Source: Candidatus Doudnabacteria bacterium (lineage in GTDB: Bacteria; Patescibacteriota; Doudnabacteria; UBA920; 2-01-FULL-46-14). From it: 42,139 nt of DNA. This document shows, in pieces, positions 7,501-19,774 of this stretch (position 1 is the stretch's first letter; every line of letters starts with the position of its first letter). The stretch spans positions 1 through 42,139 of the forward strand of contig JBGQGB010000002.1 in assembly GCA_041497195.1 (NCBI GenBank). The letters are read 5' to 3'. Under the pieces are notes generated by a model. It had not been told where the DNA came from, searched no databases, and was given only the letters and a program-made list of their open reading frames with translations. Position numbers and translations under genes: made by a program.

Positions 7501-7510
7501 TCGCCAATAC

Positions 7511-7548
7511 GCCGTTGTAGCTCAGCTGGTAGAGCAACTCCATGGTAA
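7511..7548 (+). pseudogene. Orphan copy of the 5' half of tRNA-Thr(GGU)
   Basis: 38 nt identical to the 5' exon at 7672-7707 plus the AA that starts the 3' exon; no acceptor 3' strand follows. Confidence 0.85.
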
Positions 7549-7671: not shown

Positions 7672-7938
7672 GCCGTTGTAGCTCAGCTGGTAGAGCAACT
7701 CCATGGTGGGGCATAAGCTCCCTGCCCATTGCCGGAGAAATCCGACAGTGAATCCCGAATTACGGTCAAAGGCTCGAAAGAGTTAAGACCGTGGCGAGCA
7801 ATCGCCCGAACGACTGACAAGGGTGGCTAAATCCGAAAGGATACGCCAAAGATACAGTCTAATCCCCATATAAGTTTTACGAAATTGGGGTGCAAATGAA
7901 GGAGTAGGTCGTCGGTTCAATTCCGACCAACGGCTCCA
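7672..7938 (+). tRNA. tRNA-Thr(GGU), exons 7672-7707 and 7899-7938, interrupted by a group I intron; CCA encoded
   Basis: Joined exons give a full cloverleaf: GCCGTTG/CAACGGC acceptor, GCTC/GAGC D stem, ACTCC-ATGGTAA-GGAGT anticodon arm, GTCGG-TTCAATT-CCGAC T arm, U discriminator, CCA. Confidence 0.93.
7708..7898 (+). ncRNA. Group I intron (191 nt) at tRNA position 36/37
   Basis: 5' exon ends in U and the intron ends in G. P1 has U7707-G7724 wobble; P7 GACTG/CAGTC; S-like AAGATACAGTCT; GAAA/GCAA tetraloop hairpins; P9 CCCCA/TGGGG. Confidence 0.88.
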
Positions 7939-8006: not shown

Positions 8007-8165
8007 ATGGCGCAAGAGAATTTGGTAAAGATGCAATGCACGGTCTGCAAGCGAATCAATTACTATACGACCAGAAATAAAAAATCTACGCCCGAGGCGC
8101 TGGAACTCAAAAAGTTTTGCAAATGGGATCGCAAAAAGACAGTGCATAAGGAAATGAAGAAGTAA
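8007..8165 (+). CDS. rpmG: 50S ribosomal protein L33 (52 aa; too short for the ORF track)
   Basis: MAQENLVKMQCTVCKRINYYTTRNKKSTPEALELKKFCKWDRKKTVHKEMKK; SD AAGGA upstream. Confidence 0.95.
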   Translation: MAQENLVKMQCTVCKRINYYTTRNKKSTPEALELKKFCKWDRKKTVHKEMKK

Positions 8166-8169
8166 AAAG

Positions 8170-8190
8170 ATCCCGCTCGCGCGGGATTTT
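8170..8190 (+). terminator. rpmG terminator
   Basis: ATCCCGC-tcgc-GCGGGAT followed by T run. Confidence 0.8.
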
Positions 8191-8202: not shown

Positions 8203-8249
8203 AGCCAGCCCTATTTTTTTATTCAAATTTTATCTTCACGATATCTGGG
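8203..8249. repeat. Direct repeat copy A (metallophosphoesterase 3'-end-like)
   Basis: 42/47 identical, ungapped, to 8957-9003; 8217-8249 is 29/33 identical to 10995-11027. Confidence 0.9.
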
Positions 8250-8258
8250 ATTTTGTCC

Positions 8259-8287
8259 TTGATATCCAAAACGATTTCTGATACGCT
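8259..8287 (+). promoter_or_regulatory. Promoter of the 174-aa orphan gene
   Basis: TTGATA, 17 nt, TGaTACGCT. Confidence 0.6.
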
Positions 8288-8374
8288 GGACTGTCAGTTC
8301 ATGCTGACGATGTCCGAGCCTACAAGGGGAGGACATAGCTCCAAAAACCTATAAGGTGAATAGGAGGAAAAAAT

Positions 8375-8899
8375 ATGAAGGCGAGAGTCGCGAGGTTGTA
8401 TTTCCGCAGACATCCATGGCTGGGTGATTTATTTCGGGAATGGGGCTACGAATTTCGAGATAGTTGGCTGCAGGAGCGGCTGCACTTCATTGCGTTTAAG
8501 CCGTTCCGGTCTCTCGACTTGGATGCGTCTTTTCCCACAGAGGAAAACCGGTGTTGTCTCCATCACGGCGGACCCCTCGAAAGTTCGATGCATGCGTTTG
8601 TTATGTTCCACTATGTGGGGCCGCCGACAGAGGCACCTTGGGATCGGGCCACGAAACCCTTTTTTAAGCACCTCGGTCGTGTACGTGAGGGTCGCCCCCT
8701 GATCCAGGAGCTCAGGAGTATTTGCAATCAGCGTAGCAGTGATGATTATGCGCTGAGACCAGACGCAATTGTGGTGCGGTTTCAACTGAAGAGCGCCCAC
8801 CTCGGGATTTTAAATGCCGCTGTTGAAGTCTATCTGATTCCCGAGTCGTGGGAGCCACCTGTCGCTCCCGCGAAATCAAAGCGAGCAAAAAAGCCTTAG
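8375..8899 (+). CDS. Hypothetical protein (174 aa)
   Basis: Strong SD AGGAGG, own promoter and terminator; no recognised motif. Confidence 0.8.
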   Translation: MKARVARLYFRRHPWLGDLFREWGYEFRDSWLQERLHFIAFKPFRSLDLDASFPTEENRCCLHHGGPLESSMHAFVMFHYVGPPTEAPWDRATKPFFKHLGRVREGRPLIQELRSICNQRSSDDYALRPDAIVVRFQLKSAHLGILNAAVEVYLIPESWEPPVAPAKSKRAKKP

Positions 8900-8934
8900 C
8901 CAGGAGAAAGGCCTCTTGCGAATGCTTGTTTTGA

Positions 8935-8974
8935 AGGGTCGGTCTGCCTCACGGCAAGCCGGCCCTATTTTTTT
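8935..8974 (+). terminator. Terminator of the 174-aa gene; right arm lies inside repeat copy B
   Basis: AGGGTCGG..TGCC-tcac-GGCA..CCGGCCCT followed by a 7-T run. Confidence 0.8.
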
Positions 8975-9006
8975 GCTCAAATTTTATCTTCACGATCTCC
9001 GGGCGG
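8957..9006. repeat. Direct repeat copy B
   Basis: 8971-9006 is 32/36 identical to 10995-11030 (3' end of the metallophosphoesterase gene). Confidence 0.9.
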
Positions 9007-9027
9007 GTTTAAAATGCCCAAGCAAAT

Positions 9028-9588
9028 TTAGTTCTTTAGATATTCATTTTTTAAGAACTCAGTGAAGTCATCCATTTCTTTTTTGTATAGCAGCCGCCTC
9101 TCATTTCTCGTTTCTTCCGGAAGGTCGGGCAGTACCTCGAGCCCGTTGCTTTGAATACGGAAGCCGTATGCAATGTTATCGAATCCAAGCATTGCGTCGT
9201 AAGGGACTTTTCTGTCGTTGACGCGATAAAATTGATCTAAAAGTCTTATTGATTTGAGTCGTAATTCTCGTCCTTCTTTGTCCACTTTTTCCCGAAGCTC
9301 GTCATTATACTGCCACTTTTCGACATCCGGTTCTTCTGGGTACACTTCGACCCAAGGGGCGAGCGTTTGTTCCTCCAAGACCCTATCAGTCTCGGAATGT
9401 CCTTCGCAGGATTGCCTGGTGCGCAGTCCGTGAGCGTTAAACATTATGACTGCTTCTTTGATGCCCGGTTCAATAGGTCTGCCTGTCGCGTCAGTAATTT
9501 GGTCGATCTCCTTTCGGATTTCCTGAAGGTGATGCTCTTTGGCTGGCCTTCCTTGATCTCCGTGCAGTTCGTCAGAATTTGATGCCAT
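9028..9588 (-). CDS. Hypothetical protein with an N-x2-G-x2-T-x2-SCEGH motif
   Basis: 186-aa ORF coupled 5 nt downstream of the 442-aa ORF. Confidence 0.8.
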   Translation of the reverse strand: MASNSDELHGDQGRPAKEHHLQEIRKEIDQITDATGRPIEPGIKEAVIMFNAHGLRTRQSCEGHSETDRVLEEQTLAPWVEVYPEEPDVEKWQYNDELREKVDKEGRELRLKSIRLLDQFYRVNDRKVPYDAMLGFDNIAYGFRIQSNGLEVLPDLPEETRNERRLLYKKEMDDFTEFLKNEYLKN

Positions 9589-9593
9589 AGATT

Positions 9594-10922
9594 TTAGAGC
9601 TTAGATCTTAGATAGCCCAAAAGGTCTCCCATAACGCGTTCTTCAGATGGCCATCCTGTAACACTACCTGAAACTAATAATAGTCTAGTATTTATAGTAT
9701 TTAATAATATTTTTTTTTCTCGATCAGTGAGCGCTTGAAGAATCTGTTTGTCTGCTATAGTCGAGTGTACAAAGGCATCTTTGTCAGGGTTAGCTTTCAT
9801 TGCTTGAGTCATTAAATTTTCGTACTCTTTTTTGAGGTTTTTAAGTCTCTGAAGAAATCTATCTCCATCAGGATAAAGCATCCTAAAAGCGTCTAGGATG
9901 GCTGCTGTATTTTTTTGTTGGGTTTCCTGGTCTTTGCGGTTATCTCTGCGACCTTCTTCAATGTAGGGGGCATTCAGAATTTGATCGACGGCTTCTCTAG
10001 CGCTGTTTTTATTTCCTCGTTCGTTTAGCTTGGCCCGAATGTTATTGAGCTCGTTTTGGTTATTCTTTTGGTTTCTCGCGACCACTGCTTCTTTTGTAAA
10101 TTTTTTGGTTACCAAATTCCTAAGCGAGGCATCCAGATTCCTTTTGTCACCGGTTCGGCTGAATTGGGTGCCGATTGTTCTCAATTCACCAGTCAAGAAA
10201 TGCATTTCTTGTTCCGACATATTTCCGACACGTCGCAGCAGCTCCTGTCGAGAAGGAACATCTTCGGGGACGCCAGCAAGCGAATACAATTTTTCCAGAG
10301 AGCTAGTCGTCGATGAGCGACCCTGCATCTCTTGTTCACGAGCCCGTTGTCCAGTAGAAGTCCGTTCCGCCCTTGCTTGTTTCTCCATAAACAAAGCGTC
10401 TCTTATGGCTCGGCGCTCATCCCAGGATTGCTTGATTTCCGGTGTAAGGTTCCTTTGCGAGGTGGCGCGTGTTTGCAATAAGCCTTCCACGTATTTTAGT
10501 GTTTTTTCAATGCCCTGCATTCCCTCCTGCCCTGGTTGGTTCATCTGCAGAATTGTGCTTTGAATTTCCAAAGCATCCCGTCTATCACTATGATCTCCAA
10601 GAGATCCCAGTTCTTCCGCGTTTCGATTTAGGGTAGCCTGAGATTCTTGAAAAGACAGAGGCTCCCTGCCCGTCCTTTGGTTTTCCAGTCCATTAGCTTG
10701 GGTGGCTACATAGCGTAGCTCGTCATTCCAGTTTCCTGGCTGTTCCAAAAGCTGCTGGCCTTTGTGATAGTTTTCTTGAGCAAATTCCGTACCTGCGCGG
10801 ATATAAGTATCATAAAACGCAGATCGCCCCATTGAAGCGCTTCTATCGGCAATTTCATACATTTTTCTAGCTACTTCCTGGGATTGATTTTGTGTGGTTT
10901 CTTGGCTTTCGACGTATGGCAT
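9594..10922 (-). CDS. Hypothetical charged, helical protein (442 aa)
   Basis: Long ORF rich in E/Q/R/K, no TM; TATAAT on the minus strand just upstream. Confidence 0.82.
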   Translation of the reverse strand: MPYVESQETTQNQSQEVARKMYEIADRSASMGRSAFYDTYIRAGTEFAQENYHKGQQLLEQPGNWNDELRYVATQANGLENQRTGREPLSFQESQATLNRNAEELGSLGDHSDRRDALEIQSTILQMNQPGQEGMQGIEKTLKYVEGLLQTRATSQRNLTPEIKQSWDERRAIRDALFMEKQARAERTSTGQRAREQEMQGRSSTTSSLEKLYSLAGVPEDVPSRQELLRRVGNMSEQEMHFLTGELRTIGTQFSRTGDKRNLDASLRNLVTKKFTKEAVVARNQKNNQNELNNIRAKLNERGNKNSAREAVDQILNAPYIEEGRRDNRKDQETQQKNTAAILDAFRMLYPDGDRFLQRLKNLKKEYENLMTQAMKANPDKDAFVHSTIADKQILQALTDREKKILLNTINTRLLLVSGSVTGWPSEERVMGDLLGYLRSKL

Positions 10923-10996
10923 CGGAGAAAGTTTACGCTGCTTTTTGCGAGTTTATTATAACCTAGTAAAATAAAGACCGCCATTCTCAGGCAGTT

Positions 10997-12169
10997 TTAT
11001 TCAAATTGTATCTTCACAATCTCCGGGCGGTTGCCGACGCGCATCAGCGGGCCCCAGGTACCGACACCATTGGTCGTGTAGATGGTCAAACGGCCTGATT
11101 TGTTGAGCCCGTAGTGAAAACGTCCGTAAATCAGGCGACTGACGTAATTAAAAGGAAAAATTTGCCCTTTGTGCGTATGACCAGAGAGCATCAGAGAAAC
11201 TCCCGCCTGTTCAATTTCTTTTATATTTACTGGCGCGTGAAACAGTAAGATGCTCGGCTTGTTGCGGGCAAAAGCGAGATGAGCCAGCACATCGCTTATT
11301 TTGCCAAATTTTTCGCTCATTCGGTAGTCGAGGCCCATAATCTGCATGCCCTGGACCTCGATAAAGCTATCCCGCAAGATGTTGACCCCGATTTTTGTGA
11401 GAGCATCGGTGACGAGCTGGTCGTTGCCGACAAATTCGTCGTGATTGCCGAACGCGAAGTGAATTCCCATACTCGGCTGGAGTTTTGCCAATGGGGACAC
11501 GCCATCCACAAAATCCATGGTGGGCCCGTCAAAAACATCCCCGGCGATAAAGATGACGTCTGGGTTGAGCGCGGCCGTTGTTTCGACAATTTTTCGCATG
11601 AATTTTTTTCCGTGAATCAGGCCCAGGTGAGAGTCTGCAAAAAGTACGGCGGTTTTATGCTGCCAGGCGGGCGGGAGATTTTCGAGTTTGATGCTCAATT
11701 CCCTGATGGCCGGTCTTCGCCCATTCCACAGGCCATAGCCACAAACGATAATCGCGATCGCGAATACGGTTTGATGAACGATTGCTCCTGCTTGGGGGTT
11801 GAGGGGAGCGCCCTGGAGGATATAGATAATCCAGGACAGAAATGAGGCAAAGAACAAATAGGTGATGATCCCGAGCCAGAAGGACGATACTGAATAAAAA
11901 AACCGAAGTGTAGAATTGTTTCGGCTTCGGGAAAGAAATGAGGTCAAAATAAACATCACGGGTAGGACCGCGAAAATAGGCAGGGCCGCGTCTAAAAGAT
12001 ACGGTTCAGGAAGAACCCCAAAGTACGCGACAGTGTGGTAAACGAAGTAGGTCGCCAACCCGAGAACAAGTGAAAAAACCAGGAGGAAAATTATGAAAGC
12101 GATGCGCACGGGAACTCTTGGGATTAATTGCAAACCGAGCTTGTTTTGAATTATATCGAAAATAGGCAA
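10997..12169 (-). CDS. Membrane-anchored metallophosphoesterase (YkuE-like)
   Basis: ADSHLG, AGDVFD, GNHD, LLFHAP, SGHTHKGQ calcineurin-like motifs; N-terminal TM helices. Its last codons are repeat copy C (10995-11030). Confidence 0.93.
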   Translation of the reverse strand: MPIFDIIQNKLGLQLIPRVPVRIAFIIFLLVFSLVLGLATYFVYHTVAYFGVLPEPYLLDAALPIFAVLPVMFILTSFLSRSRNNSTLRFFYSVSSFWLGIITYLFFASFLSWIIYILQGAPLNPQAGAIVHQTVFAIAIIVCGYGLWNGRRPAIRELSIKLENLPPAWQHKTAVLFADSHLGLIHGKKFMRKIVETTAALNPDVIFIAGDVFDGPTMDFVDGVSPLAKLQPSMGIHFAFGNHDEFVGNDQLVTDALTKIGVNILRDSFIEVQGMQIMGLDYRMSEKFGKISDVLAHLAFARNKPSILLFHAPVNIKEIEQAGVSLMLSGHTHKGQIFPFNYVSRLIYGRFHYGLNKSGRLTIYTTNGVGTWGPLMRVGNRPEIVKIQFE

Positions 12170-16376: not shown

Positions 16377-17589
16377 AGATTTATTTGAAGAAACCTACAG
16401 TGCTCTGACTGTCAACAAAGTCCGATCCAGCTTGACTATGCTAGGTATCGTTATCGGCATCAGTTCCGTGATCGCCTTGGTTGCGATCGGGCAAGGAGCA
16501 CAAGGCTCGATTCAATCCCGGATCCAGTCGCTGGGGTCGAATCTGATCATTGTCTCCCCGGGAGCCCAACGCGGGCCGGGAGCGTTTGTCAGTGCCGGAA
16601 GAGGGTCGTCTCAGACCTTGACGCTAGAGGATGAGCAGGCACTTGAAAAAAATATTACCTTGGCCATGGCAATTGATCCAGAGGTGTCGCGCAGGTTTCA
16701 AATCACCGCCAAAGGGACAAATACCAACACCCAAGTCATCGGGACCAATTACAACTATACTACGGTGCGAAATGTCAGTGTTGATGAAGGTTCTTTTATT
16801 ACGGATCCGCAAGTGCAAAATTCAGCCAAGGTTGCAGTCCTGGGACCCACCACGCGAGATGATTTGTTTGGGGCAGGAGCCAGTGCCATCGGGCAGACTA
16901 TCAGGGTAAGCGGAGTCGAATTTAAAGTAATTGGAATTACGAAGTCAAAAGGGGGCACTGGTTTTTTCAATCAAGACGACGTCATTTTTGTTCCTTTATC
17001 AACCGCGCAGCATTATTTGGCTGGCGGTAATTACCTCACGGGTATTAGCATCCAGGCCAGCAGTCCGGATGTAATGACTACTATCCAGCAACAGGTCACT
17101 GATTTATTGTTGCAGCGCCATAAGATTGGCGACTCGACGCAGGCGGATTTTAGCGTGACCAACCAGGCGGACATTGTGGCTTCGGCATCGAGTGTTACCA
17201 ACACCTTCACCACCCTGCTCGCTTCAATTGCGGGAATCTCACTCCTGGTCGGAGGGATTGGCATCATGAACATGATGCTCACGACCGTCACTGAACGTAC
17301 TCGCGAAATCGGCCTCAGGAAAGCCATCGGGGCTACGAGAAAGGACATCAATGCGCAGTTTTTGATGGAAGCACTGATGCTGACCTTTATCGGTGGGATA
17401 ATTGGGATAGTACTCGGGTGGGGGGTGTCTCTCTTGGTTGCCAAGTTTGCCAGCACTCCGACGCAGATGTCCATATCCTCGGTTCTGTTGGCTTTTGGCG
17501 TTTCCGCCGCCATCGGCTTGGTGTTTGGCTATTATCCGGCGCGGCGGGCGTCGAGGCTGAATCCGATTGAAGCCTTGAGATTTGAATAA
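16366..17589 (+). CDS. ABC transporter permease (MacB/FtsX type)
   Basis: RSSLTMLGIVIG, GGIGIMNMMLTTVTERTREIGLRKAIGA, YYPARRASRLNPIEALR. Confidence 0.95.
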   Translation: MKVRDLFEETYSALTVNKVRSSLTMLGIVIGISSVIALVAIGQGAQGSIQSRIQSLGSNLIIVSPGAQRGPGAFVSAGRGSSQTLTLEDEQALEKNITLAMAIDPEVSRRFQITAKGTNTNTQVIGTNYNYTTVRNVSVDEGSFITDPQVQNSAKVAVLGPTTRDDLFGAGASAIGQTIRVSGVEFKVIGITKSKGGTGFFNQDDVIFVPLSTAQHYLAGGNYLTGISIQASSPDVMTTIQQQVTDLLLQRHKIGDSTQADFSVTNQADIVASASSVTNTFTTLLASIAGISLLVGGIGIMNMMLTTVTERTREIGLRKAIGATRKDINAQFLMEALMLTFIGGIIGIVLGWGVSLLVAKFASTPTQMSISSVLLAFGVSAAIGLVFGYYPARRASRLNPIEALRFE

Positions 17590-17632
17590 ACTTAATCACT
17601 ATAATTAATCTTAACAAGTTAAGGAGATAAAT

Positions 17633-18070
17633 ATGAAAAAGTCTATTTTGATAACTGTTGTAGTCGCGCTTATTGCAGCGGGTGTTGGCTTTTACGGCGG
17701 CATGTTGTATCAGCAGAAAAAGGACGTCTCGCAGCGGGGGCAGCGTGCTGCGCAGTTTGGGTTCGGTGCTGGCGGGCCGGGCGGCACTGGAACCAGAAGA
17801 GGAGCTGGCAATGGAGCGGGTGGTTTTGTGTCGGGGCAAATCATTTCCCAGGACAGCCAGGGTATCACTGTCAAATCCAATGACGGCAGCTCGAAAATTG
17901 TTCTCGTTTCCGGCAGCGCGCAAATCAGCAAGTTTGATCCGGGTACCAGTACAGATCTGCAGATCGGCAAGGATGTGACAGTTATGGGCACTACAAATTC
18001 GGACGGGAGCGTGACCGCGCAGAATATCCAGATTCGTCCCAATCCGCCGGCGCAACCGCAGCAGCAATAG
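17633..18070 (+). CDS. Membrane-anchored Gly-rich DUF5666-like protein
   Basis: SD AAGGAG; TM, Gly-rich linker, SGQIISQDSQGITVK...DGSVTAQNIQI. Confidence 0.75.
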   Translation: MKKSILITVVVALIAAGVGFYGGMLYQQKKDVSQRGQRAAQFGFGAGGPGGTGTRRGAGNGAGGFVSGQIISQDSQGITVKSNDGSSKIVLVSGSAQISKFDPGTSTDLQIGKDVTVMGTTNSDGSVTAQNIQIRPNPPAQPQQQ

Positions 18071-18092
18071 TAGGGAAGTTTCTTTGGATTTT

Positions 18093-18120
18093 TAAAAACG
18101 GGGTGAAGACCCCGTTTTTA
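18093..18120 (+). terminator. Terminator of the ECF/MacAB operon
   Basis: TAAAAACGGGG-tgaaga-CCCCGTTTTTA. Confidence 0.85.
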
Positions 18121-18244
18121 GTTTTGGCAGAGGCAAACGGGAATGGAGCTTGCTGCCGCTTGTTCAAACACGCCGGCACTTTTGTTTGAACGAACTTGTA
18201 AACCATGCCCAAAGTTGATACTCTTATTTGAGTAAAGTTTCAAC

Positions 18245-19774
18245 ATGGAACAGCAACAATACGAAGTCAGCTCCAAGCCAGGACGGCTCATTCTCGCGGC
18301 CACGATTATCGCCAGCGGCATGGCGTTTTTGGAAGGAACGGCTGTAAATTTGGCTGTCCCTCCGATTCAGCTGGCCTTTGGGGCCAGCCTCACCCAAATC
18401 CAATGGGTGATAAATTCGTTTGCCCTGACCCTGGCCGCTTTTCTTTTGATCAGCGGTTCGCTCTCGGACCGGTTTGGCCGCAAAAAGATTTTCACCTGGG
18501 GGATTGTCCTGTTTGTCATTTCCTCGCTCGCCTGCGGGTTGGCCAGAAATATTACAGTTCTGATTGCTTTTCGGGCGCTCCAAGGGTTGGCGGGAGCCAT
18601 GATGATTCCCGGCAGCTTGACCATTATCAGACTGGCGTTTAAATCCTCTGACCAAGGGCGCGCGATCGGGCTGTGGTCCGGCCTGTCCGGAGGCGTGGCG
18701 GCTTTGGGCCCGTTCATCGGCGGAGCCCTGATCCAGGTGTTCGGCTGGCCGTCGGTGTTCTATCTGAATCTTCCGCTCGGGATTCTGGCTTTTTTCCTGA
18801 CGATTTATTACGTCCCTGAAAGTCGAAATACAGAAGCGACCAAACTTGATTGGTGGGGGACCACTCTCATCACCCTGAGTTTGTTTGGTCTCTCTTACGG
18901 CCTCATCAACGCGCCGCTTTTTGGTTGGCACAACTATTTGGTGCTGTCGAGTTTCATCGGAGGTCTGGTCCTGCTGGTTTTGTTTGTAGTTGTGGAACTG
19001 AAGACCGAGCAGCCGCTGGTGCCGCTGAAAATTTTTCATTCGTCCCTGGTCAGTGGCGCCAATTTGGTCACCCTGCTTCTGTATTTTGCCTTGTATGGCA
19101 TGATTTTTTTCGTGGCCCTCAATCTCGAGCAGGCGCAAGGGCTGAGTCCGTTTCAGGCCGGACTGGGCTTGTTGCCCGCCATAGTTTTGATAACTTTTCT
19201 GTCCGGGCCGGCGGGCCGCTTGGCCGACCGGATTGGTTCCAGAAAGCCGATGATTTGGGGACCCTTGATCGTATGTGCGGGGATGGCGCTTTTGGCGACC
19301 CCGGGAGTGCATGCAAATTATTTTCTTTATTTTATGCCAGGACTGATCCTCTTTGGCGGGGGCATGGCGCTCCTCATCCCCGCCTTGGTCAAATGCGCTC
19401 TGGCCGTGGATGAAAAATATTCCGGCTCGGCGTCCGGGGTGAACAACGCCGTTTCCCGGGTCGCCGCCCTTTTGGCCGTGGCAGTGCTGGGCGTAGTGGC
19501 GCTATCCCTTTTTTCCGGGAAGCTGCACCGAGCCGTGGCTGCCTCACCCGAGCTCAGTATCGCACAGAAGACTATTGTTCTTGACCAAACAAACAAACTA
19601 GGCGGCATCGTCTTGCCGAATGATTTTGCCCCGGGTGCCAGACTCACCGCTGACCACATCATCAAGCAGTCTCTAGTCTCGAGTTTCCGCCAGGTCATGA
19701 TTATCAATGCCATCCTGGCCTTTTGCAGTGCGGTCATCGCGTATTTTTTGATCAAGGACCGTGAGGCCAGCTAA
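18245..19774 (+). CDS. MFS drug:H+ antiporter, 14-TM (EmrB/QacA family)
   Basis: GSLSDRFGRKKIF motif A, FRALQGLAGA, GPFIGG, WPSVFYLNLPLG. Confidence 0.93.
   Translation: MEQQQYEVSSKPGRLILAATIIASGMAFLEGTAVNLAVPPIQLAFGASLTQIQWVINSFALTLAAFLLISGSLSDRFGRKKIFTWGIVLFVISSLACGLARNITVLIAFRALQGLAGAMMIPGSLTIIRLAFKSSDQGRAIGLWSGLSGGVAALGPFIGGALIQVFGWPSVFYLNLPLGILAFFLTIYYVPESRNTEATKLDWWGTTLITLSLFGLSYGLINAPLFGWHNYLVLSSFIGGLVLLVLFVVVELKTEQPLVPLKIFHSSLVSGANLVTLLLYFALYGMIFFVALNLEQAQGLSPFQAGLGLLPAIVLITFLSGPAGRLADRIGSRKPMIWGPLIVCAGMALLATPGVHANYFLYFMPGLILFGGGMALLIPALVKCALAVDEKYSGSASGVNNAVSRVAALLAVAVLGVVALSLFSGKLHRAVAASPELSIAQKTIVLDQTNKLGGIVLPNDFAPGARLTADHIIKQSLVSSFRQVMIINAILAFCSAVIAYFLIKDREAS

Follow-up and report, generated by a model that had tools for sequence, protein, structure and literature searches.

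Small recombinase-free gene cassettes between repeated copies of a metallophosphoesterase gene end in a CPR bacterium

The metallophosphoesterase gene end and its cassettes

The window, that is, the whole stretch of 42,139 nucleotides that was analysed, lies on a 240-kb contig (C2), and in it an array of two small gene cassettes separates rpmG from the 3' end of a metallophosphoesterase (MPE) gene. The host is an uncultured ultra-small bacterium (CPR/Patescibacteria). The features of the array are as follows.

8007..8165, plus strand: rpmG (ribosomal protein L33), the conserved flank at the far side of the array (Pfam Ribosomal_L33, E 2.2e-18)
8170..8187, unstranded: hairpin terminator 3' of rpmG that works for either strand (terminator scan, fold)
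8203..8249, minus strand: copy C, a displaced MPE end (IPDIVKIKFE*) with 17 nt of former downstream sequence (repeat search, alignment, codon table)
8250..8956, plus strand: cassette 1, a unit of 754 bp, of which 707 bp lie between the repeats (ORF list)
8935..8975, plus strand: intrinsic terminator of ORF174 (fold -30.5 kcal/mol)
8957..9006, minus strand: copy B, a displaced and chimeric MPE end (RPEIVKIKFEQ, stop lost; repeats, alignment, L043 comparison)
9007..10994, minus strand: cassette 2, unit length 2024 bp, with ORF442 (9594-10922) and ORF186 (9028-9588) (ORF list, L043 comparison)
9028..9588, minus strand: ORF186, member of a large uncharacterised family (homologue search, structure prediction)
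10995..11030, minus strand: copy A, the working MPE gene end (RPEIVKIQFE*; repeat search, codon table)
10997..12169, minus strand: gene of the membrane-anchored MPE, intact, the target (Pfam Metallophos)

The reading frame of the MPE gene is intact, and its product gave weak YaeI/LpxG-like matches under the cut-off in NCBIfam. The hairpin at 8170..8187 was probably the original terminator common to rpmG and the MPE gene.

The repeat search returned a single three-copy family (8203-8249, 8957-9003 and 10981-11027), which represents the MPE 3' end. The triplication described by the sequence-only reading was confirmed by this search, by alignment and by the 21-nt core pattern, which at ≤2 mismatches matched the 965,789-base genome three times, at A, B and C, while the reversed pattern used as a control gave 0 matches. 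No MPE-end copy outside A, B and C exists in the 966-kb genome. The repeat pairs are 88-89% identical. The 47-nt match that had been attributed to the two outer copies was recovered with the same score (42/47, 89%), but it joins B and C, the two copies closest to rpmG. This match includes the stretch AGCC(G/A)GCCC and a T run, which in copy B belong to the ORF174 terminator as its 3' arm and tail and in copy C stand without a pairing partner. In addition, copy B is chimeric: it matches A in the half that faces the gene and C in the half that faces rpmG. Three further assemblies (two NCBI MAGs and one Logan contig) were 100% identical across the region, which speaks against the misassembly that had been raised as an alternative, and none of the four identical assemblies held an empty, one-cassette or circular form of the locus.

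The repeats enclose two cassettes, one of 0.7 kb with a single gene and one of 2.0 kb with two genes. Cassette 1 encodes ORF174 (8375-8899), which is preceded by a strong ribosome-binding site (AGGAGG), and contains the 5' arm of the terminator of this gene, whereas the 3' arm and the T run lie inside copy B. In cassette 2, ORF442 is preceded by a TATAAT box, which is conserved in a relative, L043, and by a weak hairpin (10977-10995). The sequence-only reading had considered all of the cassette genes orphans. This holds for ORF174, for which no homologue was found among 5.8 billion proteins; however, one relative of ORF442 was found, and the ORF186 family comprises 1085 cluster representatives at E<=1e-3, with a nearly invariant S-C-x-G-H motif, D33 and E171. 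The predicted structure of ORF442 was too poor to judge its fold. The fold of ORF186 was predicted confidently (pLDDT 92.4), and no fold match to this model was found in the PDB.

The three cassette ORFs had no match in Pfam, ORF174 had none in PHROG, PADLOC or NCBIfam either, and no endonuclease family (LAGLIDADG, GIY-YIG, HNH or PD-(D/E)xK) was matched within the cassettes in any of these four databases, so that the recognisable endonuclease ORF of a homing endonuclease cassette is lacking. No Phage_integrase or Resolvase match was obtained on C2, all of those in the genome being on C1, C4 and C5, and the earlier statement that there is no integrase thus agrees with our searches. No pseudogene fragments are visible within the cassettes in the ORF list, and no inverted repeats were found at the cassette ends, which are flanked by repeats of 33-47 nt.

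Mobility of cassette 2 and the proposed mode of insertion

The relative L043 carries the ORF442-ORF186 cassette 16 nt behind a different gene, with no MPE gene near it. One tip of this copy reads '…AAACCCGCCCGGAAATCGTGAAAATC' and the other 'GATCAAATTTGAATAC…'; the two tips correspond to the 5' half and the 3' half of the MPE core, arranged as a circular permutation. The copy comprises exactly one unit, both of its break points fall at the same core position, and in this single case the tips have only AT/ATC (2-3 nt) in common with the target. The proteins encoded around the cassette in L043 map by tblastn to positions 17245-18844 of the window in the same order, at amino-acid identities of 85% (MFS transporter), 76% (permease) and 56% (150-aa protein). 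The two sites derived from this comparison are given below.

18071..18245, plus strand: empty counterpart of the L043 cassette site, a gap between the gene for the 150-aa protein and the MFS transporter gene (tblastn, L043 flank proteins)
9000..9002, minus strand: putative exchange point, with a homologous position in each copy, between …GTGAAGAT and AMAATTT… (where the L043/window homology ends and begins)

The presence of the unit at another site, the permuted core halves and the identity of ORF186 together show that cassette 2 moves as a discrete mobile unit with its ends within the repeated core. Between L043 and the window, the DNA identity of the ORF186 part is 93.5%, compared with 77.7% for the flanking MFS gene, which indicates that the cassette was transferred recently. 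The alignment with L043 also identified ORF186 and the adjoining core half as the most recently exchanged block. If a circle of 2.0-2.3 kb were opened at random, the break would fall inside the 36-nt core only ~1.6-1.8% of the time; cassette 2 therefore probably moves as a circle opened mid-core, the split core being observed in one contig (L043). In the window, the gene-side half of copy B runs on from cassette 2 and is common to L043, while the rpmG-side half belongs to cassette 1.

The explanation that we prefer, with a probability of about 0.6, is that two self-contained foreign cassettes, probably in the form of circles, were inserted in succession into the final ~11 codons of the MPE gene by exchange in the middle of the core. 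The incoming DNA would most probably have been a small circle bearing its own ~35-47-nt copy of an MPE gene end as an attP-like core, and this core would have recombined with the resident gene end to give the gene, a hybrid core, the cassette, a second hybrid core and the old downstream DNA. The reading frame would thereby be rebuilt, and the earlier end would be left as a dead stub further downstream. Cassette 2 would then have entered in a second event, at the core next to the gene and ahead of cassette 1, to produce copies A, B and C, of which C would be the oldest stub under this order. The strand exchange would have taken place mid-core (between …GTGAAGAT and AMAATTTGA…), a position that we take from the alignment and to which we assign the chemistry only by inference, and the last 4 codons and the stop of copy A would have been brought by cassette 2. 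Two tiny recombinase-free cassettes would thus each have delivered a new gene-end copy to the MPE gene.

The ends of related MPE genes were compared with these copies. Stubs B and C retain the family consensus IVKIKFE, and an IVKIKF ending is also found in cassette-free MPE genes (L015 and L024), whereas the working gene ends in the unusual IVKIQFE. Distant MPE genes have a single end each. In the allele comparison suggested earlier, a distant relative (L014) had an MPE gene without stubs, and at the rpmG-MPE junction, where any close relative is missing, no empty or one-cassette allele was found. The unusual working end and the consensus stubs were counted in favour of the preferred explanation, as were the exactly three core copies in the genome, the chimeric copy B, the permuted halves in L043 and the empty counterpart of the L043 site. 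The idea of repeated att-like insertion inside a gene 3' end, each event rebuilding that end, is supported by the L043 unit, the intact MPE gene and the consensus stubs.

With regard to the enzyme, four ORFs of the genome with a Resolvase domain have the size of large serine recombinases, and one of them sits in an integrative element with a primase-polymerase. The only tyrosine recombinase is an Xer-like protein encoded on C1, which is the sole Phage_integrase match, and no phage-type tyrosine integrase is present in the genome. According to PMC12286644 and PMC5937489, large serine integrases have sites of 40-50 bp and can use pseudo-sites. We tentatively favour a site-specific recombinase acting in trans, which would most likely be one of these four; RecA-type recombination across short homology appears nearly as likely. 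Both routes that the sequence-only reading had offered for recombinase-free cargo, mobilisation in trans and recombination by short homology, are thus retained. Counted against the preferred explanation were the single contig that shows the split core, the absence of empty, one-cassette or circular forms from the four assemblies, and the absence of any core-like sequence next to a recombinase gene in the genome or in IMG/VR. Serine integrases do not require an attP that is like attB on either flank of the crossover alike. The mimicry of the core on its two sides seen here fits homology-driven or tyrosine-type exchange better, and it was also counted against the preferred explanation.

Another explanation is that cassette 2 is self-mobile, with ORF186 (or ORF442) acting as a nuclease or recombinase of an undescribed kind and cutting the centre of the core, comparable to a free-standing homing endonuclease gene with a replacement gene terminus. 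The ORF186 family is large and patchy (10/146 genomes of the class) and often close to contig ends, its near-invariant D, S-C-x-G-H and E residues might constitute an active site, and ORF186 belongs to the most recently exchanged block. In addition, ORF186 homologues occur in repeat-flanked single-gene units in two genomes, G124 (24+ nt) and G128 (17 nt) (p~0 vs shuffles), and weaker 11-nt repeats surround homologues in L054 and L056. However, the majority of the family members have no flanking repeats, neither Pfam, PHROG, PADLOC, NCBIfam nor the PDB gave a match despite the pLDDT of 92, and the cassettes that carry ORF174 or cargo genes for 82-aa and 81-aa proteins share the architecture without an ORF186 gene. 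We therefore consider self-mobility very unlikely.

Recurrence of the architecture at other loci

Every ORF end was scanned genome-wide against its own downstream DNA, and reversed queries in these scans gave 0 matches. The genome repeats the architecture behind uvrA and behind the gene of a secreted 160-aa protein (the C7 gene), and at ftsZ a stub of only 26 nt is present without cargo. The repeats are taken from the respective targets and differ by locus (44 nt at uvrA, 35 nt at the C7 gene); thus, one sequence-specific recombinase cannot explain all of the loci. The cassettes at the other loci are minimal promoter-gene-terminator units of 0.43-0.75 kb. An 81-aa cargo family lies between unrelated flanking repeats in two genomes, and in one of them (G112) the repeat is intergenic and 44 nt long. 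The uvrA stub is absent in 29/29 relatives. In a related genus (g10), a tRNA site is empty in one genome (G130) and holds 1-3 units in others. This architecture is therefore a general mode of gene gain in the lineage and not one special att site.

The codon differences between the stubs and the working ends are mostly synonymous (5 synonymous and 1 nonsynonymous at uvrA, 5 and 0 at ftsZ; 10/11 differing codons when pooled), so these stubs come from other functional alleles and not from decay in place. Slippage or repeat collapse during assembly can make short direct repeats, but an in-place duplication that later decayed is, like an assembly artefact, effectively refuted by the agreement of the four assemblies, by the L043 copy and by this synonymous bias, which argues against neutral decay of a local copy; the intervening sequences moreover resemble neither each other nor the gene.

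The same data bear on a possible but clearly less probable scenario, in which linear DNA from a relative, containing the 3' part of the MPE gene and the neighbouring gene or genes, displaced the resident end with no circle and no dedicated recombinase. Homologous pairing would have occurred inside the MPE gene, and the far end would have been joined a few dozen bases before the resident stop by homology-facilitated illegitimate recombination; only stubs <50 nt would persist, since recombination would remove longer direct repeats. The origin of the uvrA and ftsZ stubs from other functional alleles is expected under this scenario, as are the different repeats at different targets of one genome and the 81-aa cargo family between unrelated repeats. 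The stub starts, which range from -27 to -44 nt from the stop, would be expected from a detection floor and a stability ceiling. The cargo-free ftsZ stub resembles plain recombination patching; it favours linear DNA and, like the locus-specific repeats, was counted against the preferred explanation. In addition, insertion with 'long target duplication' is reported mainly from naturally competent species (PMC2853133). However, linear DNA leaves L043 unexplained, since an exact unit broken twice at the same core position there lies at a site to which it has no homology, and the C7 repeat, with identity at 35/35 positions up to an abrupt change in the last codon and the stop, would be odd for diverged alleles.

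Comparison with known systems

An integron or CALIN array was rejected, as no IntI is encoded on the 240-kb contig, the Xer-like gene is the only Phage_integrase match in the genome, and there is no attC folding. Integron gene cassettes are likewise small, mostly single-gene and recombinase-free, and they circularise and stack at one site; unlike them, the cassettes here have their own promoters and terminators, there is no attI, and their boundary repeat, the end of a coding gene, shows no folding advantage over shuffles (-7.1 kcal/mol, z -0.30) and is not an attC hairpin. A transposon or MITE was also rejected, given the lack of terminal inverted repeats and flanking repeats of 33-47 nt instead of 2-14 bp. 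Mobile endonuclease ORFs with carboxy-terminal duplication in fungal mitochondria and the C-terminal displacement of rhs/CDI loci likewise supply a new terminus and push old termini downstream, where they accumulate as stubs as they do here, but no endonuclease or toxin/immunity signature was found in our case, and the displaced pieces amount to only ~11 codons.

The elements e14 and phage 21 of E. coli integrate in the 3' end of icd and supply a replacement end. As in these tyrosine-integrase islands, the target of the MPE array is functional and the old ends stay as pseudo-copies (stubs B and C); the two ends in icd likewise differ mostly synonymously. Such elements are 10-50 kb long and carry their own integrase adjoining att, whereas the cassettes here have none. 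The possibility that the cassettes are eroded remains of larger integrase-bearing islands or prophages at the MPE end, in which deletions left the att repeats, would draw on this classic mode of integration and on the view that CPR genomes are strongly deletion-prone. However, the two-gene unit in L043 is similar in size, complete and again without an integrase, the cassettes elsewhere are just as minimal, a phage-type tyrosine integrase is missing from the genome, and no pseudogene fragments are visible in the two cassettes. This origin is thus very unlikely, and the array was not assigned to the tyrosine-integrase islands, whose integrase lies at the element edge.

Among the closest known systems is SCC/SCCmec of staphylococci, in which Ccr large serine recombinases use an attB in the last codons of rlmH/orfX. 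Both systems stack in tandem at a gene 3' end, the last codons of the target being repeated at every junction (A, B and C here) with the gene intact, and some stacked SCC elements without their own recombinase rely on one in trans. In contrast to SCC, the present array uses another target gene, its cassettes, at 0.7 and 2.0 kb, are smaller by a factor of 10-50, its repeats (33-47 nt) exceed those of SCC in length, and the pattern occurs at several unrelated targets of the same genome. No Ccr-like large serine recombinase is encoded in the cassettes or on the contig, and the four candidates lie unlinked elsewhere in the genome. The L043 junctions, a single case with only AT/ATC in common with the target, would be compatible with a conservative exchange at a central dinucleotide.

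The suggestion that this may be an undescribed cassette-accretion site has to be narrowed, because the site is not unique (uvrA, C7, ftsZ and tRNA) and events of this kind have to some extent been described before. The class known as 'insertion with long target duplication' (Nobusato et al. 2000; Furuta et al. 2010, PMC2853133), which was established on restriction-modification genes, places gene units without mobility genes between genome-unique direct repeats of 30-50 bp or longer, which often span a gene stop or a tRNA end; for example, 46-bp repeats overlap the 3' ends of HI0105 and HI1589, and a 47-bp repeat lies at a Thermus tRNA. Its mechanism is not known, and its cases are enriched in naturally competent bacteria (PMC2853133). 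The MPE array resembles this class in that its inserts lack a mobility gene and are flanked by direct repeats of >30 bp found nowhere else in the genome, but it contains no restriction-modification genes. Furthermore, the repeats of that class are near-identical, true target duplications, whereas the uvrA and ftsZ copies differ mainly at synonymous sites and therefore derive from different alleles. The descriptions of that class include neither tandem stacking nor an ectopic copy in permuted order, both of which are present here.

The metallophosphoesterase gene end and its cassettes

A repeat search, alignment and a core pattern scan of the whole genome confirmed the claim of the sequence-only reading that the 3' end of the metallophosphoesterase (MPE) gene is present in triplicate.

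Features of the array at the MPE gene end
10997-12169, minus strand: MPE gene (Pfam Metallophos), C-terminus RPEIVKIQFE*; its working end is copy A (10995-11030)
8957-9006: copy B, from repeat search and alignment; reads RPEIVKIKFEQ, stop lost
8203-8249: copy C, from repeat search and alignment; reads IPDIVKIKFE*
Order in gene direction: MPE gene, copy A, cassette 2, copy B, cassette 1, copy C, bidirectional rpmG terminator, rpmG

In the alignment, copies B and C were identical at 42 of 47 positions, covering 17 nt past the stop (AGCC[G/A]GCCC and a T run), and A and B matched at 29 of 33 coding bases. Copy B is a chimera, its gene-side half resembling A (…CTCCGGGCGG) and its rpmG-side half resembling C. 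A 21-nt pattern of the core, as we term the repeated gene end, searched with up to two mismatches, occurred at only three places in the 965,789-base genome, namely A, B and C, and the reversed control gave 0. Because the region was 100% identical in three further assemblies, of which two are NCBI MAGs and one is a Logan contig, misassembly, a concern raised together with the claim, is excluded; no allelic variation was seen among these assemblies. The codon differences among the MPE copies (2 synonymous against 2-3 non-synonymous) do not discriminate an origin from other alleles from decay. An explanation of the array by local duplication or assembly artefact appears extremely improbable.

Cassette 2 (2024 bp) contains a weak hairpin, a TATAAT box, ORF442 and ORF186, all in the same orientation as the MPE gene. 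In cassette 1 (754 bp), ORF174 runs the other way; it has an AGGAGG ribosome-binding site and its terminator is strong. Folding placed the 3' arm and T run of this terminator within copy B, while the equivalent arm in copy C was unpaired. The GC contents of cassette 1 (51.9%) and cassette 2 (44.6%) are unremarkable against 49.3% for the genome. None of the three cargo proteins had a match in Pfam, PHROGs, PADLOC or NCBIfam. The claim that all of the cassette genes are orphans held for ORF174, for which the protein search found no relative, and failed for the other two: a single relative of ORF442 was found, and ORF186 belongs to a large unnamed family with 1085 representatives at E<=1e-3, in which D33, an S-C-x-G-H motif and E171 are nearly invariant. 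The predicted model of ORF186 is confident (pLDDT 92.4), and the PDB gave neither a sequence match to its profile nor a fold match to its model; the model of ORF442 is unusable (pLDDT 48.5). Long fused forms of ORF186, in which no Pfam domain was found, were ruled out as relatives of ORF442, to which they are unrelated. The closest of these fusions (P0124, behind parB) lies in a context with neither the core nor repeats, and no ORF186 relative was found in IMG/VR. That ORF186 mobilises its own cassette seems very unlikely to us.

A single genome represents the genus, and identity falls to 51% for the next MPE homologue. Inspection of 10 other MPE loci revealed no stub, that is, no displaced short copy of the gene end. 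When metagenome and genome collections were scanned for the exact core pattern, chance matches and one distant, stub-free MPE gene came up. This gene (L024 4768-4803; also L035), which comes from another Patescibacteria MAG and is 38% identical, has 20 bases identical to copies B and C (ATCGTGAAGATAAAATTTGA) and continues for four extra codons (…KFENLNY*), as if the stop had been replaced. We also observed that several independent assemblies (the ends of L016 and L017, and L013 at 4888) break 6-57 nt past an MPE stop codon, which could reflect strain variation at the gene end in those populations.

Cassette 2 at another site

The sole relative of ORF442 sits on a 3.7-kb Logan contig (L043) that carries an equivalent two-gene unit. 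Its ORF186 half shows 93.5% DNA identity to window positions 9528-8986, and its ORF442 is ~70% identical to that of the window in the N-terminal part and unalignable in the C-terminal part. Homology to the window breaks off midway through copy B ('…AAACCCGCCCGGAAATCGTGAAAATC|GCAACCCC'), and the other tip of the unit begins 'CCG|ATCAAATTTGAATACAAAAATGCC…', where the distal half of the core precedes a region homologous to the sequence past copy A. The unit therefore carries the MPE gene end as two halves whose order is circularly permuted, with no MPE gene nearby; when joined, the two tips read CGC CCG GAA ATC GTG AAA ATC AAA TTT GAA, or RPEIVKIKFE.

The genes flanking this unit, an MFS transporter, a 150-aa protein and an FtsX-type permease (85%, 56% and 76% amino-acid identity, respectively), match window positions 17245-18844 with their order kept, and the matching gap in the window (18071-18245) is empty. 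The unit lies 16 nt past the stop of the 150-aa gene, within a small palindrome (TTGCG-ATCGGA-CGCAA), and has AT/ATC and nothing more in common with its target. We take this single contig as proof that one cassette, cassette 2, is mobile as a unit and that its core is permuted. In addition, the flanking MFS DNA is 77.7% identical between L043 and the window as against 93.5% for the ORF186 block, which indicates that cassette 2 was recently transferred between the two lineages.

The sample that gave L043 (SRR22388145) yielded another contig, L014, which shares the gene order of window 27.4-35.6 kb at 52-88% amino-acid identity. Its MPE gene (50% identical) ends in RPEIVRIRFK* and has a terminator; within 8 kb of it there is no stub. 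Synteny also breaks at the MPE 3' end (window 10997 versus L014 1180): in L014 the MPE gene is followed by a DUF5654-yjbQ-…-rplJ block that lies 15 kb off in the window (27.4-35.6 kb). A 5-bp inverted repeat at the centre of the core (ATTGT-GAAGAT-ACAAT) was considered and given no weight, being perfect in copy A only and weak in B, C and L043.

Gene-end repeats elsewhere in the genome and order

This architecture, first recognised here beyond the MPE locus, recurs at other loci of the genome and in other genomes of the order. For every ORF, the final 36-40 nt or final 12 residues were compared with the DNA downstream of it, with reversed-query controls giving 0; with tandem paralogues set aside, three further cases were found besides MPE. 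Between 12 and 23 kb of the window, no convincing direct repeats bracketing accessory genes were found. In uvrA (G000:C1:341658-342165; L070, L127), a second copy of the final 44 nt lies 463 nt downstream, with a convergent 82-aa membrane ORF between the two; each copy has its own terminator. No relative of this cargo was found in 146 genomes, and all 29 further uvrA loci compared within the order lacked the stub; among these the uvrA-hrcA-grpE synteny is kept with a gap varying from 75 to 1150 nt. The second case is a 160-aa secreted-protein gene (G000:C7:21105-21601; L107), in which a 35-nt portion of the gene end is repeated 462 nt downstream at 100% identity, the stub retaining its own last codon, stop and terminator. 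The repeat encloses a convergent 81-aa ORF with its own promoter and terminator, a member of a multi-copy family that 56 of the 146 genomes of the order contain, some copies having stop codons. In ftsZ (G000:C1:318837-318928), the last 10 codons (PAFIRKKMK*) are repeated after 26 nt with no cargo between.

The stubs of two of these genes differ from the genes largely at synonymous positions: the codon differences are 5 synonymous to 1 non-synonymous in uvrA and 5 to 0 in ftsZ. Synonymous changes make up about 11 of the 12 altered bases, whereas by our estimate ~38% of nucleotide changes would be so under neutral decay of a local copy (binomial P ~2e-4). This excess shows that both stubs were derived from other functional alleles, and the ftsZ stub resembles a patch by which the gene end was replaced from another allele. 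Displacement by linear DNA, in which homologous pairing at one end is combined with an illegitimate join, would account for ftsZ, for the allele-like stubs and for the variety of targets; it leaves the unit on L043 unexplained, and we regard it as somewhat improbable.

In another genome (G112; L112 58-528, on G112:C72), a homologue of the 81-aa cargo occupies a 427-bp promoter-gene-terminator unit between copies of an unrelated 44-nt repeat, which is intergenic, direct (39/44) and directly upstream of a nucleotidyltransferase/HEPN gene pair. The presence of the same cargo family between unrelated repeats shows that the repeat comes from the target and not from a fixed att site.

A tRNA locus in genus g10 (L058 3274-3956; L060 2963-4603; L067, L068, L069) holds zero to six variable genes, depending on the species, ahead of a conserved downstream gene. 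One genome (G130) has no cassette there, and three (G123, G126, G124) have one to three repeat-bounded units, one of which, in G124, is an ORF186 homologue. The repeat, in one to three copies, is made up of the final 6 tRNA nucleotides and the terminator hairpin (42 nt), and a conserved promoter lies past the tRNA terminator in all of these genomes. Recurrent stub boundaries at this locus were rejected as independent events, since the stubs and ~25 nt upstream are homologous between genomes; the stubs are partly orthologous, and their common boundaries are therefore not independent evidence.

Mechanism and relation to known systems

The genome encodes four Resolvase-domain ORFs of the size of large serine recombinases (C4:74179-75741, C1:268-1641 and two on contig C5) and a sole tyrosine recombinase, which is Xer-like, and none of these genes is on the 240-kb contig that holds the window. 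The search for the core beside a recombinase that had been proposed came back empty: the pattern scan found no core-like sequence beside the recombinase genes of this genome and IMG/VR gave no relevant core match. That the cassettes are eroded integrase islands is highly improbable.

The L043 unit is exactly one repeat period long, and its two ends fall at one and the same position of the flanking repeat. A circle formed between copies A and B and reopened at that position would give such a unit, and the predicted junction of the cassette-2 circle would be …AAACCCGCCCGGAGATCGTGAAGAT joined to ACAATTTGAATAAAACTGCC…. By computation, a random break of such a circle would fall within the 36-nt core only ~1.6-1.8% of the time. 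The absence of homology at the new site of L043 excludes homologous integration there; together with the permuted ends in the core, it points to a defined exchange point at the centre of the core and hence to site-specific activity, and this is the main argument for both. We consider it probable (roughly 0.6, site-specific and short-homology versions together) that a circular cassette recombines, through the gene-end copy it bears, with the resident gene end, a model that would explain the geometry, the rebuilt frame, the stacking, the chimeric copy B and L043. We infer both the enzyme and the circular form. A site-specific enzyme acting in trans is tentatively proposed because of the 2-3-nt overlap in L043; serine recombinases leave an overlap of 2-3 nt. 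Campbell-type exchange by short homology is favoured by the two-sided resemblance of core and gene end and by the diversity of targets, and we hold it to be rather unlikely. In outline, the L043 unit and the intact MPE reading frame support the proposal of the sequence-only reading that recombinase-free cargo was repeatedly inserted at a gene 3' end, rebuilding it each time.

Among working systems, SCC-type accretion at rlmH comes closest, with its stacking, its junction repeats of last codons and its recombinase-less members moved in trans; however, the locus here has no linked Ccr-like gene and its units are far smaller. The e14/icd system has the replacement-end logic in common with the MPE locus, but e14 has an integrase and the cassettes have none. 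The array is not an integron, having neither IntI nor an attC fold. 'Insertion with long target duplication' describes unique 46-47-bp repeats over gene 3' ends or tRNAs bounding units without mobility genes, chiefly in naturally competent bacteria and by an unknown mechanism (PMC2853133). The MPE locus fits this description save for its cargo and the allele-like divergence of its copies. No account of such gene-end cassettes in CPR bacteria was found in the literature searched.

The genomes of CPR bacteria (Patescibacteria) are tiny and have few recognisable mobile elements, and the route by which they gain new genes is poorly understood. The MPE locus documents such a route, in which minimal expression units enter the last codons of intact genes without harm, stack, and hop between related lineages. 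A bolder reading, which we judge doubtful, is that CPR bacteria gain genes via an undescribed class of recombinase-free mini-cassettes. These would be promoter-gene-terminator units of 0.4-2 kb, carried as circles bearing a ~35-50-nt copy of the 3' end of a host gene or tRNA, and cut and rejoined at a fixed mid-copy point by a dedicated enzyme; candidates would be a trans-acting serine recombinase with relaxed specificity or a protein of the widespread ORF186 family, with its confidently predicted fold and no solved relative. Such a class would be a functional analogue of integrons, with gene ends replacing attC/attI. Confirmation of a dedicated enzyme or of a circular intermediate would make the cassettes a new gene-capture system, one that might also offer a handle for genome engineering in uncultivated bacteria. 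If ordinary recombination is responsible, it would account for the 'long target duplication' class, and short gene-end stubs would be reliable markers of recent gene gain.

Other loci of note were observed in this genome. An integrative element (G000:C4:74179-81775) starts past an rpsB-tsf-286-aa gene block and extends to the contig end; it comprises a 520-aa large serine recombinase (C4:74179-75741), an adjoining 761-aa primase-polymerase-like protein and small ORFs. Elsewhere (G000:C5:72004-76654), a pair of paralogous serine-recombinase genes is spaced 4 kb apart, and the last 70 nt of the first are repeated in inverted orientation (98.6%) at 75504-75573, bracketing three small genes, so the segment between the inverted copies may be invertible. 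In the window, ARAGORN, with the intron option only, identified a tRNA-Thr(GGT) with a 191-nt intron at 36/37 directly upstream of rpmG (7672-7938), a site at which default ARAGORN and Rfam (E<=0.1) reported neither a tRNA nor a group I intron. An orphan copy of its 5' exon (7507-7546; 39/40 identical) lies 161 nt upstream of the real gene and stops exactly at the intron insertion point, forming a 5'-side analogue of the gene-end stubs.
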